Assembly: GCA_034440175.1 (NCBI GenBank)
Contig: JAWXBO010000003.1
Coordinates: 2,285 to 66,284 of the forward strand
Reading direction: 5' to 3'
From: Alphaproteobacteria bacterium
GTDB lineage: Bacteria > Pseudomonadota > Alphaproteobacteria > Micropepsales > Micropepsaceae
Length of the DNA stretch: 64,000 nt
The notes below the pieces were generated by a model. The model was not told where the DNA came from. It saw nothing but the letters and a program-made list of their open reading frames with translations, and did not search any database. The position numbers and the translations under genes were made by a program. Of this stretch, positions 28,325-38,860 are shown in pieces; position 1 is the stretch's first letter, and each line of letters begins with the position of its first letter.

Positions 28325-29196
28325 GACAGGTCACAATTGCCGCCACGCAAATGGCTTGCGGGCCAGACCGGGCGGCCAATGTCGCGAATGCGAAACGCCT
28401 GGTGCGTGAAGCGAAGGCGAAAGGCGCGCAGGTCGTTTTGATTCAGGAACTGTTCGATACGCCCTATTTTTGCAAGGACCAGTTCGCGAAACATTTCGCA
28501 TTGGCGGAGCCGTTTGAAGGCAATGGGCTGATCAAGGAGTTTTCGGCTTTGGCACGAGAACTGAACGTCGTGTTGCCGCTGTCGTTTTTTGAGCGGGCGA
28601 ACAATGCTCACTTTAACTCTTTGGCGATGATCGACGCGGATGGGTCGGTGCTGGGACTTTATCGCAAGTCGCATATTCCGGACGGGCCCGGGTACCAGGA
28701 GAAGTATTACTTCAATCCCGGGGACACTGGTTTTAAGGTTTGGGAGACGCGGTATGGCAAGATCGGCGCGGGGATATGTTGGGACCAGTGGTTTCCCGAA
28801 GGCGCGCGCGCCATGGCGCTGATGGGGGCGGAGATTTTGTGCTATCCGACGGCGATCGGCAGCGAACCGCCGCCTGCGCCGGTAGTCGATTCTTCGGCGC
28901 ATTGGCGGCGTGTGATGCAGGGGCATGCGGGCGCGAACTATCTGCCGCTGATCGCCTCGAACCGCATCGGGCGCGAGGTGGGCGATACGTGTGAGATTAA
29001 TTTCTACGGCACGTCGTTTATTGCAGGACCCACCGGCGAAATTTTGGCCGATGCGGGGCGCGACAAGGAAGCGGTGGTGACGGCGACGGTCGATCTCGAC
29101 GCGATTGCGGTTGCGCGCAATTCATGGGGAATGTTCCGGGATCGGAGGCCGGAGTTGTATGGCGCGGTGATGACGCTGGATGGGGTGAGGGGGTAG
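28321..29196 (+). CDS. aguB: N-carbamoylputrescine amidase (nitrilase superfamily)
   Basis: ATGA overlap with aguA. Catalytic triad context (QELF, YRKSHIP, GAGICWDQWFPE). 291 aa. Confidence 0.9.
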   Translation: MRQVTIAATQMACGPDRAANVANAKRLVREAKAKGAQVVLIQELFDTPYFCKDQFAKHFALAEPFEGNGLIKEFSALARELNVVLPLSFFERANNAHFNSLAMIDADGSVLGLYRKSHIPDGPGYQEKYYFNPGDTGFKVWETRYGKIGAGICWDQWFPEGARAMALMGAEILCYPTAIGSEPPPAPVVDSSAHWRRVMQGHAGANYLPLIASNRIGREVGDTCEINFYGTSFIAGPTGEILADAGRDKEAVVTATVDLDAIAVARNSWGMFRDRRPELYGAVMTLDGVRG

Positions 29197-29626
29197 GGGG
29201 CTTAAATCTTTTTCCGGGAAAAGTTTACACTGACCCCACTTCTAATCACTCCTGCGGGTCACTAATCTACTATTAGTCGAGGCGCCCGTCAATTAAGTAT
29301 AGCGTCCCCCTAATTCTATTGCGGGGGCGACCGGCGAAATTTTGGCCGATGCGGGGCGCGACAAAGAGGCGGTGGTGACAGCGACGGTCGACCTTGATGC
29401 GATTGCGGTGGCACGCAATTCCTGGGGAATGTTTCGCGACCGGAGGCCGGAGTTGTATGGCGCGGTGATGACGCTGGATGGGGTGAGGGGGTAGGGGGCT
29501 CAAATCTTTTTCCGGGAAAAGTTTACACTGACCCCACTTCTAATCACTCCTGTAATCACTCCTGCGGGTCACTAATCTACTCTTAGTCGAGGCGTCCGTC
29601 AATTAAGTATAGCGTCCCCCTAATTC
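29020..29626 (+). repeat. Head-to-tail diverged duplication (units 29020-29317 and 29318-29626) of the aguB 3' end plus about 120 nt downstream
   Basis: Direct comparison of the two units, period 298 nt. The second unit carries a 12-nt internal duplication (tgtaatcactcc). Confidence 0.95.
29330..29494 (+). pseudogene. Detached second copy of the last 54 codons of aguB
   Basis: Encodes the identical peptide TGEILADAGRDKEAVVTATVDLDAIAVARNSWGMFRDRRPELYGAVMTLDGVRG*, with 12 third-position differences from 29032-29196. No start codon and no upstream coding part. Confidence 0.9.
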
Positions 29627-29762: not shown

Positions 29763-32051
29763 TTAGTTGTCTAATGTTGAAAACATCGAACGAAGTCCGG
29801 CATCTTCAAGCGCGCCCGGCCGATCTGAATCCGCGCCTTCGTACCCATCGTAACCGTCCTCATGCGCCTCCTTTTCATCGAGCTCTATGCGTCGCTCCAA
29901 GATCAGGTTACTTAGGTGGCGAGAACTCGAGCCGCTCCATGATGTCAATTCGTCAAGCTCTGATTCAAATTGATCAAGATCCATCGACGAGCCAATTTCG
30001 TTGATAACGTCAGATGCATTCCCAATCAGACCATCGATAAGCGCATTGACGATCTCTATCGCCCTCTCGGATCCGAGACTGGGATTTTTGTCCAAGAACA
30101 CCGTGAGCATATTCAGTTCGGGTGCATCAAGATATTCGTAATCGCTAGCGAGCCTCTCGAACATTCGATGCCTCAAGGCTTCCAGCACCTCGTTGTAGTT
30201 CGGCAAATCCTGATACGCGATTCCACTGACGGTGGAGTAAAGATCGATTGCCGTCTCGACCTCCGGCTCGTGCAGCGGCTCAATGCGTATCCGGCGAGAT
30301 AAGGCATTGGCACAGATCGCAATTTGGCTAGACTTGGTCACGAGCCACCAACGTAGCACCAGATCCAGTCGAGCGAGCAGCGAGAGCCCCTCCTTCGATT
30401 GCAATTTTCGATTTTGCGCATCCAAACGAGTGTGCTGTTCTGGTAGCTCCACTAGCGAAGTGGCGGCTTTTGCCAAGCCCGAGGTCATGTTGCCATCGAG
30501 CACTGGATGCTTCGCAGCGTGGACAGCAAGATAGTCCCACACTAACGCAGCTTGCCGAGACTCCGACAGGTTCTGCAAAACGTAGTGGGGAAAGCTGGTC
30601 CCAATCAGGGCGTTGTCAAGAAAGTCCCGTATGGACGGGTTAACGAAACTAACGGTCGCATTTGCTACATAGATGAACGAATTGGAAGTCTCGCGCATCG
30701 CACGAGTAAAATCATCGTGGTCAGTTGAAAACCTGTGATCCTGTGCTTCTGCACGGTACACCAACCAAAAACCCCGCTCCAAATCGGTGACGCTGGTTCT
30801 TTCTGGAAGAAAGAACAACGTTGCCACCAGCGACCTCCCCTTGCGCGACAAGTGCTCCCGAAAAGCATAGCTCCAGATCAGTTGTGGGTAGTCGAGATTG
30901 TTTACAATCCAATCGCGGTAGCGATCTGCTGCAACTTTACCAATGTCCGGACTCGTAATGAGAAATTCGATCAGTCGAGGGCTGAAATTCTTGTGATCAA
31001 TTATCTTTATGAAAAAATCGTCGCTAAGCAACGCTCCACGATGCGCCGAACTCAAGCCCGAGAAATAAATGTGGTTGTAGAGTATTTTTGCCTTCACCTC
31101 CCGAGTATACGTTGAAATATCAAGAATGTACTTCCGAACTTCCACGAAGTTGTTACTGATTTTCTCCGAAGCGATACTTGCTTGATTCAGAATGTACTCC
31201 CGACTAGTGAGGACGAACCGCGAGTTTGGCGATCCTTGCACACGAGAAATGAACCCCATTAGCTTTGCATCGTCTCGCTGGAGCGACTCTGGCGTGAGAC
31301 GAATCTGCCCGAGAAAATCGTCGAAGAAAAAAATCTGACGCTTGGTCACATCGTACACATCCAGCGCTTCGTCGAAGCTTTCGACCGCAAACAACTCCCA
31401 ACTGTCCTGCATGTGCAGCCACGCGATCAATCGCGCCAACGTTGTCTTTCCCACGCCAGGACCGCCGGATACAATTAGAAGGCGATGCTTGTCCAACACG
31501 CCCAACGCTTGCGACACACTTCGGTTCATTGCGAAGATGCGAACTGCCCGTTCTATCCTCTGCGCCTCGTCCGTTGATCGAACATATGTTGCATTGTGAA
31601 GTATACGTTGCAGCACCGGTGTGCTGCTCATCCAAAGCTTGAAGTGCTGTTGCTCTACCTTGGGATGACGGCCAAGCAGGTTGTTCAGTTGCTCCGCACC
31701 CAAGATGTCTGCTTGATCTAGATGCGGCGCGAACAGTTGCGCGATTTCGGCTTTGTTGTCAGGGGTCAAGCTCACCGTCGTTGCCAAAATATATCGCTGC
31801 GGTTTTAGTCGATCAACCTTCGGACGTTCGTTGCTGAGGTTTGAAAGCAGTTTTCTATAGCCACTGTCACGATAGTGCTTCGCCTGGACAATGATCTTGC
31901 CGATTTGCGCACTTGAATGTCGAAGGTCTATTCCCCCGTCTCGACCTCGTGCGAAACTCTCGAATACAAGGTTCAATTCGCCTTGCAGCAAGTCTCGAAC
32001 AAGATCCTCCAGGTCCGTCGGTGAGAGGCTTCTGAAATCGTACGAACTCAT
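29763..32051 (-). CDS. Mrr-like PD-(D/E)xK nuclease fused to a STAND-type P-loop NTPase with a long helical C-terminal region (Avs/nSTAND-like)
   Basis: ATG 32051 with GGAGG 7 nt upstream. Nuclease head GRDGGIDL...IIVQAKHY. Walker A VSGGPGVGKTT. Walker B IFFFDDF. About 450-aa C-terminal region ending in an acidic tail. Low GC relative to flanks. Confidence 0.8.
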   Translation of the reverse strand: MSSYDFRSLSPTDLEDLVRDLLQGELNLVFESFARGRDGGIDLRHSSAQIGKIIVQAKHYRDSGYRKLLSNLSNERPKVDRLKPQRYILATTVSLTPDNKAEIAQLFAPHLDQADILGAEQLNNLLGRHPKVEQQHFKLWMSSTPVLQRILHNATYVRSTDEAQRIERAVRIFAMNRSVSQALGVLDKHRLLIVSGGPGVGKTTLARLIAWLHMQDSWELFAVESFDEALDVYDVTKRQIFFFDDFLGQIRLTPESLQRDDAKLMGFISRVQGSPNSRFVLTSREYILNQASIASEKISNNFVEVRKYILDISTYTREVKAKILYNHIYFSGLSSAHRGALLSDDFFIKIIDHKNFSPRLIEFLITSPDIGKVAADRYRDWIVNNLDYPQLIWSYAFREHLSRKGRSLVATLFFLPERTSVTDLERGFWLVYRAEAQDHRFSTDHDDFTRAMRETSNSFIYVANATVSFVNPSIRDFLDNALIGTSFPHYVLQNLSESRQAALVWDYLAVHAAKHPVLDGNMTSGLAKAATSLVELPEQHTRLDAQNRKLQSKEGLSLLARLDLVLRWWLVTKSSQIAICANALSRRIRIEPLHEPEVETAIDLYSTVSGIAYQDLPNYNEVLEALRHRMFERLASDYEYLDAPELNMLTVFLDKNPSLGSERAIEIVNALIDGLIGNASDVINEIGSSMDLDQFESELDELTSWSGSSSRHLSNLILERRIELDEKEAHEDGYDGYEGADSDRPGALEDAGLRSMFSTLDN

Positions 32052-32160
32052 AAACTGCCTCCAGAATACGGCGACCGACAATCGCGTCCGCACGGGTCTT
32101 TCTGAAACCGCACCTGAGGCGCACCCCCGAATCGTTCGAGAGGTTTCTTCGGCGCCACCT

Positions 32161-33609
32161 TCACCTTTTGCGCACTGAGTAGCCGATCGGGAAAAGCAAC
32201 TTGCCGCCTGCAGCCTCCGCAGGTGTAACGGTAATTCGGAGATTGCGAGCAGGAACCAAGAGTTGCTTCGACAGCAGTCGCTCCAAACGCTCACTCGAGT
32301 AATCGCCATAAGTCCTCTTGTCCGGATGGTCTGCTGCTAGTTCGTCATCGACGGAATGAAGAACGTCAGCGCCACCGATGTACACGGACTCCACACGATA
32401 CTGTGCCCCCACGCTCTTCGCACCCACAGAAACCGCCAGGTTGTGATTTCGGCCTGGGACGGAATGGAAATCGCCCCCCGCCGCAACTAGGGCTTCCGAT
32501 AAGAAATTGAAACTGTCCTTAAACTCTGTAAGTTTCTGCAGGTCGAACAATTCTTCGAAGAACTTCCCCTTGATCTCGTTGCGAAGCCTGGCATGCTTAT
32601 CAAAGAAGACTTCGAACAACATGCCATCTAGGATTGCCTTGCGTCCCCCCTTTGGGTATCCGGCGGTTGCTGAAAGAAAGTCCTTCACGCATCCTTCGGC
32701 CGAATACGCACCACCGCATGCTGCCTGATAGACGTTTCTGCCAACGACGAAAAGATTGTGCGGATTCATCTTCAATACGGTTGTCGCGGTGAGTCCCTCA
32801 AGCGCCTTATTCTGCGCGGTGAAATTGTAGGTTTTCAGGCCCTGCACGACCAAGTGCGAAGCCTTGGCCGTATCGACGACGAAGAGCGCATCAGCGAGCG
32901 AAGCATCAGGGTAGTCTTGAAGCACTCGGCCAAGGCTCATGTTGAAAAAGAAGTTTCCGGAGAGCGATGTGTGCTCCCATGAAATTTGTTTCCCCGTCGT
33001 CTCAGCCGCAACTGTATTCCGCACCTGCTTGAACATGGTCTCGATGGGCAAATCCGGTTCATCGATGTGCTGCAGAAGCGCCGCCGTATATGAACCGTTC
33101 TTACCACCACCATCATATGCATATTGCCCTGGCGAAGTGGCGAAGCCAATAATGGTTCCCTTCGGCGCATAAACTGAGGCAAGGCCGCGAACATATTGAG
33201 ACCGCTTCCAGGCGCGCTCCCACGGGTTGTCGCGACATGCGTCGAGCACCACGATCTTTGTGCTAGCGGGAGACTTATCCAATACTTCGATAACGTGATC
33301 GAGTGATAGTGATGAGTGTTTCGCATCGGTCTCATCATCAATATCTGTATCCAACGCCATCAGATAATTGCTGCCGTCAATTTGCATCCCATGGCCCGCA
33401 AAGAAAAACAGGCCGACTTCCTTGTCTTTGAGCTGATCTCGAAACACCTTCAGAGCTTTGCCCATATCGCCCCGAGAAGCCTCGGTGATAAGAATCACGT
33501 CAAACCCGTACTTGCGCAGCTTGGCGCCAATGTCTTTTGCATCGTTTGCAGCATTTTTCAGTGCCGCACTGCCGGGATAGGCCGCGTTGCCAATCACAAG
33601 GGCGGTCAT
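32161..33609 (-). CDS. Caspase-like (peptidase C14) protease with uncharacterised roughly 250-aa C-terminal domain
   Basis: MTALVIGNAAYPG... with His-Cys dyad contexts FFFAGHGMQ and VVLDACRDNP. Start is ATG 33609 or GTG 33621. Low GC. Confidence 0.8.
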   Translation of the reverse strand: MTALVIGNAAYPGSAALKNAANDAKDIGAKLRKYGFDVILITEASRGDMGKALKVFRDQLKDKEVGLFFFAGHGMQIDGSNYLMALDTDIDDETDAKHSSLSLDHVIEVLDKSPASTKIVVLDACRDNPWERAWKRSQYVRGLASVYAPKGTIIGFATSPGQYAYDGGGKNGSYTAALLQHIDEPDLPIETMFKQVRNTVAAETTGKQISWEHTSLSGNFFFNMSLGRVLQDYPDASLADALFVVDTAKASHLVVQGLKTYNFTAQNKALEGLTATTVLKMNPHNLFVVGRNVYQAACGGAYSAEGCVKDFLSATAGYPKGGRKAILDGMLFEVFFDKHARLRNEIKGKFFEELFDLQKLTEFKDSFNFLSEALVAAGGDFHSVPGRNHNLAVSVGAKSVGAQYRVESVYIGGADVLHSVDDELAADHPDKRTYGDYSSERLERLLSKQLLVPARNLRITVTPAEAAGGKLLFPIGYSVRKR

Positions 33610-33892
33610 TTTGCACGTCACTATTCTAGACCTTGAAAGTTATTGCGATAACGAACTACTCCCACTCGATCGTTTACGAGGACTCTAACATCTTGAATTG
33701 TCCTGACATTTTTATGCGGTAAAATGTCCATACCGTCACAGATACCGTCAGAAAATCACGCTTTTGAAATTGCTCACTTTATTCCTCGATTTTCGCGGCA
33801 TGCACTCTGACGGTTCCATCGTATCAAAGACCGATCGGAACTAGCGTAGACGGATCCGCGAAATTAACAAATTCCGATATTTTAGGGCGCGC

Positions 33893-34171
33893 ATGGTGAG
33901 CTCGCTCACTCTGCTCCGCGCAGACGAAAGTCCGCAATCACGCGAGCGCTGGTCCTACATCCTGCTGGCCGAGGAACTGCGTCGCGTCAGCGCCGACCCG
34001 AAACGCGATGCGGCCGAGCTCTTCCGGCGCATGTGCTTCGACGCTCTGATCTCAAGCATCGACGATCATCCGCGCAACCATGCGGTTATCGCCCCTGATC
34101 GCGATTGGCGACTGTCGCCGGCCTATGACATGACCCCGTCTTCGCCCGTCAGTATCGAGCGCCGAAAGTGA
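33893..34171 (+). pseudogene. HipA C-terminal fragment (kinase toxin remnant)
   Basis: 92 aa, with LFRRMCFDALISSIDDHPRNHAVI...WRLSPAYDMTPS matching the HipA_C catalytic region. The N-terminal roughly 350 aa and hipB are absent. Confidence 0.75.
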
Positions 34172-34181
34172 TTCCAAATTT

Positions 34182-34697
34182 GTGGGTGTAAATCTTCGCG
34201 CTGCTACCGTTTGCGGTTGGTCGCCTCGCACGCGTCTTGATCTGACGGTAAACATTTTCGCTGCCAACGCATACGCAAACGGAGTCGTCCGCGTTCACGG
34301 CGGTCAACAGAAACGACCAAATGTCGTGATCAACGACCTGGTGCGGGCGTATCTTTTGTTGCTCAGCGCGCCGAAGGAGTTGGTTCAGGGAGAAAGCTTT
34401 AACGTGGTCGCGTCAAACCACAACGTGCTGGAGATCGCTCGTCGAGTAGCGGACGCTGTAAGGCCCGACTGCAAAATCGTCGTAGAGCCGGTTCTGGACC
34501 GTCGATCGTACCACGTGACAGCAGCGAAAATTGCTGAGCGGCTCGGTTTTCGTTGCCGCCTGAGAATCGAGGATGGCGCCCGTCAGATCAGCAACGCCAT
34601 TCGTGACACCCGCATCGGCGATCCTTCCGCCTCTGAGTACTTCAATCTCCGCCATCTAGTGGAGATTGGCGCTGTTCGGAAACTTGGGCCATCATGA
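34182..34697 (+). pseudogene. 5'-truncated NAD-dependent epimerase/dehydratase fragment
   Basis: Only the C-terminal substrate-binding half is present (RAATVCGWSPRTRLDLTVNIF...RPNVVINDLVRAY). No Rossmann GxxGxxG. Begins 10 nt after the hipA fragment. Confidence 0.65.
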
Positions 34698-37231: not shown

Positions 37232-38860
37232 CCCTTCCTATTCACCAAGAATAGCGTAGTTGGGGCGCGCGGCGCGACTTTTGATTGCCGGGCGCGTCGC
37301 GGTGATCGCGCCGGATGATGGCGACGCGGCGTTTCACGATTTATTTTTCTTGGTTGAGGTTTCGACGAAGGGCTCGAAGCGGCGACAGCGCCGCGGCGTT
37401 CAAGGTCCCGCGGCGCAGAGGCGTCCGGCGAGCGCGCGGAAGATGTCGCGCTCGGGACAGGCGGTGGGCAGGAAGACGCGGATGCGCGCCGCGCCTTCCA
37501 CCACGCGCGCGGCGATCTTGATCAGGCGAAGGCGTAGCGTTTTGAACTCCGCGCGGCGCAACGGCGAATGCGCCGGCGCGACGGCGCGCATCGTCAGCAA
37601 GAGCCAATAGGCGGCGGTGTGAAGGACCAGGCGGAACTGGTTGGCCTTGGGATCGCGGCACGAGGTGCGGTCGGAGGCGAGCTGGCTCTTGTGCAACTTG
37701 ATGAAGTTCTCGGCGTTGCCCCGCGCGCAATAGAGGGTTTCGTAAAGATGCTTGGCCCCGGCTCTGAGCGAGGTGACGACATAGCGCACGTCGAGGCCCT
37801 TGGGCGTCGCCTCGATGCGCGCCACAAAGCGCCGCTCCTTGTCCCAGCTCTTGGCGCCGTAGCGAAAGGCCTTGAAGCCGCGGCGTTTGTCTTGGCCCCA
37901 GAGCGCGCGTTGCACGGACACCGCCTCGGCCGCCTCGCGCGTCAGCGCATGAAGCACATCGTTGCCGGCAAAGCCAAAAACGTAGTCGACGCCTTGGTTC
38001 TCGCACCATTGCATCGCCTCGACCCGGCCGTAATGGCTGTCGCCGCGCACCACGATGTGGACCCTGGGCCAGTGCTTGCGGATGCGTCCGATGACATGCT
38101 TCAGGACGGTGCGAACCTCCGCGCCCGACGGCGTCTTGCCCTCGCGCAGGATCATCGCCACCGGCTTGCCGCTCCCCGCTTCGTAGATATGGATCGGCAG
38201 GAAACAGCGCTCGTCGTAATGGGCGTTGAACAGCGAGAGCTGTTGCTGGCCGTGCACCACGTCGACCGTATCGTCGATGTCGAGCGTGATCGAGGACGGC
38301 GCGCGCCGGTAACTGTCGCAAAACAGATCCACCAGCGCCGCCGCCAGCCGCGCGATCTCGATCTTGGACGGCGCATTCTCCAGCCGCGACATGGTGGGCT
38401 GCGAGCACAACGGATCGCCGCTTTCCGGCGCGCGGCCCACCGCCATCTTGAAGAGCGGATCGTGGCGCAACGAATCGCAGTCGTCGGCGTCCTCGTAGCC
38501 CGCCGCAATCGCGAACATCCGCAGCCGAAGCATCTCCTCAAGTGTGTGCTCGATGCGCTCGGGCATGCGCCGGTCGCGAATGCACGATGCAAGGCGGGCG
38601 GCAAGACCAAGCTTCTTCTCGACGCCGCGCAGCACAAGAACGCCGGCATCCGAGGAAAGCTGGCCGCCGTCGAAGCCCACGCTGACTTTTTTGCGCGCAA
38701 CCGATGGAAGATCGAACGGCAATACGATATCTTCGCTCATGACGGGTGTGGCGCTCCTCGATCGACCGATGAATCTGCGTCGCAAACAGAATCATGAATC
38801 GAATTGCGGCTTTCCGCTACACCCGTCGCTCAATTCCGTAACTTGGGTGAATAAGAAGGG
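37232..38860 (-). mobile_element. IS1380-family insertion sequence (1629 bp) with 15-bp terminal inverted repeats and CTAG on both flanks
   Basis: Left IR CCCTTCCTATTCACC (37232-37246) and right IR GGTGAATAAGAAGGG (38846-38860) match at 14/15. CTAG at 37228-37231 and 38861-38864. A single transposase ORF fills the element. Confidence 0.85.
37400..38740 (-). CDS. IS1380-family DDE transposase
   Basis: ATG 38740 (MSEDIVLPFDLPSVARKKVSVGFDGGQLSSDAGVLVLRGVEKKLGL...). About 446 aa, the typical N-terminus and size of IS1380/IS4-clade transposases. Confidence 0.8.
   Translation of the reverse strand: MSEDIVLPFDLPSVARKKVSVGFDGGQLSSDAGVLVLRGVEKKLGLAARLASCIRDRRMPERIEHTLEEMLRLRMFAIAAGYEDADDCDSLRHDPLFKMAVGRAPESGDPLCSQPTMSRLENAPSKIEIARLAAALVDLFCDSYRRAPSSITLDIDDTVDVVHGQQQLSLFNAHYDERCFLPIHIYEAGSGKPVAMILREGKTPSGAEVRTVLKHVIGRIRKHWPRVHIVVRGDSHYGRVEAMQWCENQGVDYVFGFAGNDVLHALTREAAEAVSVQRALWGQDKRRGFKAFRYGAKSWDKERRFVARIEATPKGLDVRYVVTSLRAGAKHLYETLYCARGNAENFIKLHKSQLASDRTSCRDPKANQFRLVLHTAAYWLLLTMRAVAPAHSPLRRAEFKTLRLRLIKIAARVVEGAARIRVFLPTACPERDIFRALAGRLCAAGP

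Follow-up and report, generated by a model that had tools for sequence, protein, structure and literature searches.

Two probably autonomous defence candidates side by side in a Micropepsaceae islet: a caspase-like protease with a portable C-terminal domain and an Mrr-nSTAND3 protein

The subject of this analysis is a low-GC tract in a 64,000-nucleotide (nt) stretch of contig JAWXBO010000003.1 (assembly GCA_034440175.1, Alphaproteobacteria bacterium, Micropepsaceae), which is called the window throughout. Two intact open reading frames (ORFs), both on the minus strand, lie next to each other in it. One encodes a caspase-like protease with a C-terminal domain (CTD) and is named caspase-CTD here, the other a protein composed of an Mrr-like nuclease head, a P-loop NTPase core of the nSTAND3 type and a long C-terminal part (Mrr-nSTAND3, in short the STAND protein). 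An earlier note on this DNA had taken both for an undescribed functional pair in conflict or defence. The tract is probably a small variable islet in which two autonomous, horizontally acquired single-gene defence candidates became neighbours by chance. A new caspase plus STAND system does not hold, and the locus illustrates well how genes packed closely in one orientation within a defence islet can look like an operon. As to novelty, the claim stands for one gene only: the caspase-CTD looks like a new, uncatalogued modular single-protein family with the CTD as the novel element, whereas the STAND protein already belongs to a single-gene candidate of PADLOC (PDC-S73).

The question of a pair was addressed by synteny. 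On the caspase side, a single genome of each GTDB species was scanned; 80 loci were obtained, of which 50 are full length (39-62% identity). The final tally of caspase, STAND, plasmid and IMG/VR loci comprised 119 loci, 62 with a full-length caspase-CTD and 22 with a STAND gene. Both genes occur together solely in two contigs, L081 and L099, whose identity to the window is 99.97-99.98%; a further contig carrying the part from aguB to STAND (L101) is 99.1-99.4% identical to it. Since the pair is seen only in near-identical contigs, the adjacency is confined to one population. None of the 60 other full-length caspase-CTD loci has a STAND gene within 6-8 kilobases (kb), and tblastn of the STAND protein against the 80 caspase loci (±8 kb) returned no match except L081. 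In the opposite direction, a caspase beside the STAND gene was found in none of about 13 independent STAND loci, which cover the closest homologues, distant named genomes, metagenome and viral loci; the metagenome scan with STAND gave only 8 loci. The earlier note had itself named two results that would speak against a pair, namely homologues without synteny and an already named system. The former was found for both genes, the latter in part and for STAND only.

The caspase-CTD gene is a resident of defence islands and mobile elements without a fixed partner. After clustering of the flanking ORFs no neighbour family was present in more than 6 of the 50 full-length loci, and many copies are followed by a convergent gene or by a long gap. 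The immediate neighbours, tallied in 46 non-redundant loci, include integrases (four times), AbiJ_NTD3, Peptidase_M78/capP, RES, HEPN, Abi_2 and HipA_C, and furthermore LmuA, GajB, QatD, a type I restriction endonuclease (REase) and a DrmMI-like methylase. Three plasmid contexts were met: QatA together with an integrase and a second caspase, GajA/B-like genes with IS5, and DUF4145 with NADAR and a transposon. Some arrangements are very tight. A gene for a RES-domain protein (toxin) ends 16 nt before caspase-CTD in three betaproteobacterial loci (L020 6747-7985, L022 5155-5808, L030 7326-7982), and a QatD/TatD gene (L019) or a PemK-like gene (L015) lies 9 nt upstream. In two Agrobacterium loci (L013 9462-11582, L103 7462-9582) a second, different caspase-family gene (706 amino acids, aa) is convergent and overlaps the end of caspase-CTD.

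Further evidence comes from the CTD. The earlier note could place no motif in the last ~250 aa of the caspase protein, and this agrees with the Pfam search, which gave nothing at E <= 0.1 beyond Peptidase_C14 and left residues 226-482 without a family. An AlphaFold2 model of the CTD alone reached a mean predicted local distance difference test (pLDDT) of 90.9 and a predicted template modelling score (pTM) of 0.87; it shows a bundle of helices and, after it, a small alpha/beta subdomain. No fold relatives were detected in the PDB (Foldseek, best E 0.43, none at E <= 0.001) or in BFVD, a profile search of PDB sequences was also negative, and PADLOC has no relative of the domain either. The motifs LFVxGRNxYQAACG, LDGxLFExFFD and SFxF are invariant. 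With a hidden Markov model (HMM) of the CTD, 853 proteins were found among 1.84 billion cluster representatives, 290 of them at E <= 1e-30, so that the family has at least 853 clusters at 50% identity.

The CTD is fused to four different effector domains. Among the best 150 matches 66 have a caspase N-terminus, 30 a PIN_8 domain and 54, mostly fragments, neither of them. The PIN_8-CTD proteins are about 600-665 aa long (Pfam PIN_8, 1e-27 to 1e-34) and retain GRNxYQAACG and the other invariant motifs. In addition, a TIR_2 domain precedes the CTD in P0301 (complete gene, 415 aa) and a RelA_SpoT domain in P0378. The contigs of the TIR-CTD protein and of one PIN-CTD protein were too short for informative context. 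When the same domain follows four different toxic heads, this usually points to a protein that unites effector and sensor in itself, and a domain that is portable between caspase, PIN, TIR and RelA/SpoT argues for a caspase that needs no STAND partner. The caspase carrying its own regulatory or sensor domain thus also argues against the pair of the earlier note. The CTD is proposed to be a sensor or regulatory module. More tentatively, and with somewhat less than even confidence, it may define a widespread and so far undescribed family in which a single protein acts as an immune or abortive-infection switch, with a constant sensor or regulator and interchangeable toxic heads (caspase, PIN_8, TIR, RelA/SpoT). 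Literature on PIN_8/PF18476 and on families with a shared sensor yielded nothing relevant. If the CTD is a sensor or auto-inhibitor, it would offer a new handle on how a caspase-like protease of bacteria can be activated when no partner gene is present, and on what the module detects.

Table 1 Features of the islet, its edges and compared loci. Positions are those of the window unless a locus is named; residues of the caspase refer to the 482-aa form
Feature	Position	Strand	Basis and remarks
caspase-CTD gene	32161..33621	-	ORF list; 486 aa from GTG 33621
Peptidase C14 domain	32947..33603	-	residues 3-221; Pfam Peptidase_C14 1.5e-38
catalytic His73 (FFFAGHG)	33391-33393	-	coordinates verified
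catalytic Cys125 (LDACR)	33235-33237	-	coordinates verified
CTD	32164..32934	-	residues 226-482 (257 aa); AlphaFold2 model, HMM
AT-rich non-coding stretch 5' of the caspase gene	33622..33892	.	GC 0.435; composition and sequence; right end of the low-GC tract
spacer between the two genes	32052..32160	-	109 nt; GC 0.61, above either gene; contains the GGAGG ribosome-binding site of STAND
Mrr-nSTAND3 gene	29763..32051	-	762 aa; ORF list, PADLOC PDC-S73 member
Mrr-like PD-(D/E)xK nuclease domain	31737..32033	-	residues 7-105; Pfam Mrr_cat 4e-8
nuclease D38	31938-31940	-	coordinates checked
nuclease Q56-A-K58	31878-31886	-	coordinates checked
nSTAND3 P-loop NTPase core	31062..31535	-	residues 173-330; Pfam nSTAND3 1.7e-45, 154.9 bits vs cutoff 27.2
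Walker A K202 (G196..K202-T, GPGVGKT)	31446-31448	-	invariant in 18 homologues
Walker B D244-D245	31317-31322	-	invariant in 18 homologues
STAND C-terminal part	29766..31061	-	residues 331-762; alignment A5
ABC-type ATPase genes upstream of STAND homologues	L093 4379-5992; L096 3729-5996; L097 4013-5959; L098 3732-5996
tandem duplication, left tract edge	29019..29626	+	repeat search, families D1 and D2, 91-93% identity
HipA C-terminal fragment, right edge	33893-34171	+	92 aa; ORF; Pfam HipA_C on L081
truncated epimerase fragment, right edge	34182-34697	+	ORF; weak Pfam Epimerase match on L081

The gene calls of the earlier note are sound, and both intact ORFs stand in the ORF list where it had placed them (Table 1). 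For the caspase an alternative start at ATG 33609 gives 482 aa (32161..33609), the form used for numbering, and many homologues have 486 aa. The STAND start at ATG 32051 is preceded by GGAGG at a distance of 6-7 nt and the aligned homologues share the beginning MSxYDF, which is why a longer ORF of 848 aa overlapping the caspase gene is not regarded as the gene. A promoter and terminator scan showed no terminator-like or promoter-like site in the spacer, so that the spacer speaks neither for nor against co-transcription. The AT-rich stretch in front of the caspase gene is presumed to be its promoter region.

With regard to composition, the 3.85-kb tract has a GC of 0.520, the lowest of all 3.85-kb segments in the 64 kb (mean 0.590, standard deviation 0.025). 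The low GC is thus real, but the hand counts of 43-52% against 62-67% in the earlier note overstate the contrast. The GC and the GC at third codon positions (GC3) are 0.530 and 0.594 in the caspase gene and 0.509 and 0.577 in the STAND gene, compared to 0.57-0.60 and 0.65-0.71 in the flanking genes. Both genes look foreign and related to defence, as had been claimed. Their compositions are similar and they may have arrived as one unit, as was also suggested, but neither an empty site nor another carrier of the pair was found in a search via the exact AguB protein, which returned the same population only.

The domain calls of the earlier note (a C14 protease with its His/Cys dyad, an Mrr head with a P-loop STAND core) were borne out by Pfam matches and invariant motifs. 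In the protease, His73 and Cys125 are invariant across 28-30 homologues, and the MALT1 paracaspase is the top PDB match both by sequence (phmmer, 9e-8) and by fold (Foldseek, 2e-10). About 1190 homologues of the caspase-CTD were found. Full-length identities of 55-64% are reached in Alpha- and Betaproteobacteria, Myxococcus, Acidobacteriota and others, and 39-43% in Nitrospirales, Planctomycetota and Chitinophaga; the distribution is patchy and the conservation unusually high. Copies exist on plasmids, and seven full-length ones on predicted viral contigs of IMG/VR. PADLOC v2 gave a weak generic caspase match on the CTD-bearing proteins and nothing more. Directly behind the catalytic cysteine, residues 126-170 (33100-33231) form a strictly conserved segment, RNNPWERAWxR....RGLASVYAPKGTIIGFATSPG, with an AlphaFold pLDDT <50. 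In this segment R136 and G142-L143-A144 are invariant and R141 is near-invariant, and the bond R141-G142 could be an autoprocessing site between large and small subunits.

In the STAND protein the nuclease residues E31, D38, D42, Q56 and K58 are invariant in 18 homologues (alignment A5). About 2175 homologues were found, which are conserved to residue ~480-500 and variable thereafter; many of them show 42-45% identity across only the first 63-67% of the query. Such a shared beginning followed by divergence is the pattern expected of a diversifying sensor, and the variable C-terminus is presumed to have this role. The very end (residues ~750-762, 29766-29800) consists of an acidic linker and a conserved tail, D-x-x-(I/L)-x-S-(L/M)-F-S-x-L, in which F757 is invariant in the 18 homologues. 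The profile PDC-S73 (PDLC05079) of PADLOC matches residues 1-483 at 1.1e-147 (492 bits, profile positions 1-488 of 752), and all six STAND homologues tested match it as well (1e-128 to 1e-155). On these profile matches, the protein is to be added to an Avs-like candidate family that is already catalogued; a paper naming PDC-S73 was not found in the literature. Outside the window, the two closest STAND homologues (45% identity) lie beside SLFN_AlbA_2 or Abi_C genes, and the neighbours seen elsewhere belong to defence or mobile elements: SLFN_AlbA_2, Abi_C, a resolvase, Eco57I/ResIII and a SIR2_2 protein. Residues 4-155 (31590-32040) are ~50% identical to the N-termini of TIR-domain proteins from rhizobial plasmids (H57-H60), and the N-terminal ~150 aa match the Argonaute-associated 'Aga_TIR-PNTD' models of PADLOC at 1e-46. 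As the Mrr-like head is shared with TIR-domain proteins, the nuclease head itself appears to have been shuffled as a separate module.

The edges of the islet are irregular on both sides. On the left a tandem duplication sits exactly at the GC drop; its unit of ~298-310 nt is made up of the 3'-terminal ~178 nt of the aguB-like gene and ~120 nt downstream of it. The contig L101 (99% identical to the window; ENA) has a single copy of this aguB-end repeat, and the duplication is therefore polymorphic within the population. On the right the fragments of hipA and of an epimerase gene stand back to back, with the caspase gene on one side and the GH65 gene on the other, and these remnants mark a place prone to recombination. 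Elsewhere, one caspase-CTD homologue has a HipA_C gene as its immediate neighbour, too. A DDE transposase gene of an insertion sequence (37400-38785; Pfam DDE_Tnp_1_4 / DDE_Tnp_1 on L099) lies ~3 kb from the islet and has a GC of 0.654 and a GC3 of 0.83, far above its surroundings. The 64-kb window contains no tRNA gene.

How the two proteins might act can be outlined by analogy. For the Mrr-nSTAND3 protein we infer from the family paradigm an Avs-type sensor-effector: the variable C-terminal region would bind a phage-derived ligand, the nSTAND3 NTPase would then drive an ATP-dependent oligomerisation, and this would gather the N-terminal Mrr-like PD-(D/E)xK domains, so that DNA is cut and the infection aborted. 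The caspase-CTD, in turn, would unite effector and regulator on one polypeptide. Its CTD may hold the MALT1-like protease inactive as long as it senses no trigger, which could be a phage protein or a small molecule. A dimerisation or opening driven by the CTD, possibly with autoprocessing at R141-G142, would switch the protease on, and cleavage of host or phage proteins by the active caspase could then lead to growth arrest. For both proteins, triggers, oligomerisation, substrates and any phenotype are thus meant as expectations.

Several observations weigh against an independent role of the two genes. They are co-oriented and 109 nt apart, no terminator is predicted between them, and their GC and GC3 are similar. 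In 4 of the ~13 STAND homologue loci, from four unrelated genomes, an ATPase gene lies 5-42 nt upstream of STAND; it belongs to PDC-S06/AAA_13 in Burkholderia gladioli and Limnohabitans and is Old/AriA-like in Zestomonas and Ruegeria. The STAND family is therefore not always solitary, and its upstream slot can hold a partner; together with this ATPase it may form a two-gene arrangement out of two entries which PADLOC lists as single-gene candidates. In one caspase locus (L053) a non-homologous REase-like P-loop NTPase gene follows caspase-CTD. The sample of STAND neighbourhoods is small. Finally, an experimentally shown defence phenotype was found in the literature for neither protein family, PDC-S73 being only a candidate. 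A functional coupling or co-transcription of both genes that is specific to this lineage is conceivable. The REase-like P-loop protein of L053 was also considered as a hidden STAND homologue and dismissed, the alignment by hhalign covering the P-loop alone (probability 1.6%).

In its explicit form, such a coupling would be a lineage-specific two-gene system, in which STAND senses and recruits or activates the caspase in trans like an apoptosome, or in which the caspase processes the STAND nuclease as in Canu. Besides the close packing and the similarly low GC of both genes, it could draw on the existence of caspase-nuclease (Canu) and protease-pro-nuclease pairs elsewhere (PMC12799240) and on the upstream slot of other PDC-S73 genes, which often holds a coupled partner gene. 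We regard it as very unlikely, since the pairing is absent from all 60 other caspase-CTD loci and from the ~13 independent STAND loci, the closest homologues of each gene are unpaired and the nearest relatives have diverged unequally (64% identity for the caspase vs 45% for STAND). Moreover, each protein appears complete on its own side: the caspase has a portable CTD that also serves PIN, TIR and RelA/SpoT effectors, and in STAND an effector is already fused to the NTPase. Domain HMM searches revealed no adaptor domain common to both proteins, and the nuclease is of the PD-(D/E)xK type and not the gated fold of Canu.

It is also unlikely, although less so, that only STAND is immune-related and that the caspase-CTD serves mobile elements in addiction or competition, as a fused protein resembling a toxin-antitoxin pair, or is a regulated cellular protease, for instance of stress response or development. 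Its copies on plasmids and on predicted viral or prophage contigs, beside integrases and toxin genes of the RES, PemK-like and HipA type, would fit this, as would a conservation of 55-64% across phyla, which is unlike that of fast-evolving sensors, and the weak generic match in PADLOC. However, the same neighbourhoods are rich in bona fide defence genes (LmuA, GajB, QatA/D, Abi, restriction-modification), immune proteins typically exchange toxic effector domains in front of a domain that stays the same, and toxin-antitoxin-like and abortive-infection functions can coexist. That one or both genes are non-functional, decaying passengers of a degraded island is highly improbable: the remnants of hipA and the epimerase gene and the polymorphic duplication at the edges might suggest decay, yet both ORFs are full length relative to their homologues, all invariant and catalytic residues are kept, and four independent metagenome contigs carry the same or almost the same sequences.

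If the two genes are accordingly taken as autonomous candidates, the STAND protein has its nearest known counterparts in the Avs (AVAST) systems, with which it has in common a toxic effector at the N-terminus and, fused to it, a STAND NTPase whose Walker A and B motifs are intact. Its C-terminus, variable beyond about residue 480, would correspond to their repeat (TPR-like) sensor. Nuclease-headed Avs families were reportedly described by Gao et al. in 2022. Such families are reportedly also treated in PMC13581612. Mrr-type heads are a recognised class of Avs effectors. Avs5, composed of SIR2, nSTAND3 and repeats, has been shown experimentally to sense phages and to defend against them (10.1101/2025.07.08.663546). 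Its NTPase belongs to the same clade (Pfam nSTAND3), whereas the effector here is Mrr_cat without a SIR2 match. An assignment to Avs5 proper was rejected because the NCBIfam equivalog NF041814 scored 15.9 bits vs a cutoff of 1000. The likeness to PDC-S73, catalogued as a single-gene candidate, rests on the strong HMM match, but the profile fits no further than the N-terminal 483 residues, the remainder of the protein being divergent, and the family itself is a computational candidate.

On the caspase side the Canu system (CanABC; PMC12799240) comes to mind, since there, too, a MALT1-like caspase lies just upstream of a nuclease-containing gene in a setting of defence or mobile genes. CanA, however, keeps an immunoglobulin (Ig)-like C-terminal fold, whereas the CTD is predicted to be a helical bundle with an alpha/beta part and has no Ig match; the MALT1 matches in Foldseek end at the caspase domain, and the CTD is not the Ig-like domain of MALT1 or CanA. 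Likewise, CanC is a gated pro-nuclease of the metallo-beta-lactamase (MBL) fold, whereas here a PD-(D/E)xK head is fused to STAND and no Lactamase_B match exists. A counterpart of CanB is lacking and the adjacency is not conserved. A Canu-like caspase-nuclease pair was rejected on these grounds (no Ig-like domain, MBL nuclease, CanB or synteny).

The caspase-like effector of type IV Thoeris (10.1101/2024.10.24.620036) could serve as a plausible working analogy for an activation under control of the CTD. Type IV Thoeris itself was rejected, as there is no TIR ORF in the tract and none among the immediate neighbours of homologues. A Death-like adaptor of the TRADD-N / bDLD type (PMC8195603) in the CTD was rejected as well, with no Pfam match at E <= 0.1 and no PDB fold match, although a very remote homology is conceivable. 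An EACC1-type caspase system was discarded because NF047832 of NCBIfam scored 65.3 bits vs a cutoff of 140. No gasdermin gene stands beside the caspase, whose sole neighbours are the STAND gene and the hipA fragment.

Fused toxin-antitoxin defence proteins of the CapRel type were reportedly described by Zhang et al. in 2022. The CTD is unrelated to CapRel by any test run, and sensing and auto-inhibition would hold for it by analogy. The resemblance is one of architecture: in both cases a single polypeptide carries a C-terminal domain thought to restrain an N-terminal toxic domain, and the CTD-bearing protein P0378 has a RelA/SpoT N-terminus, as CapRel does.

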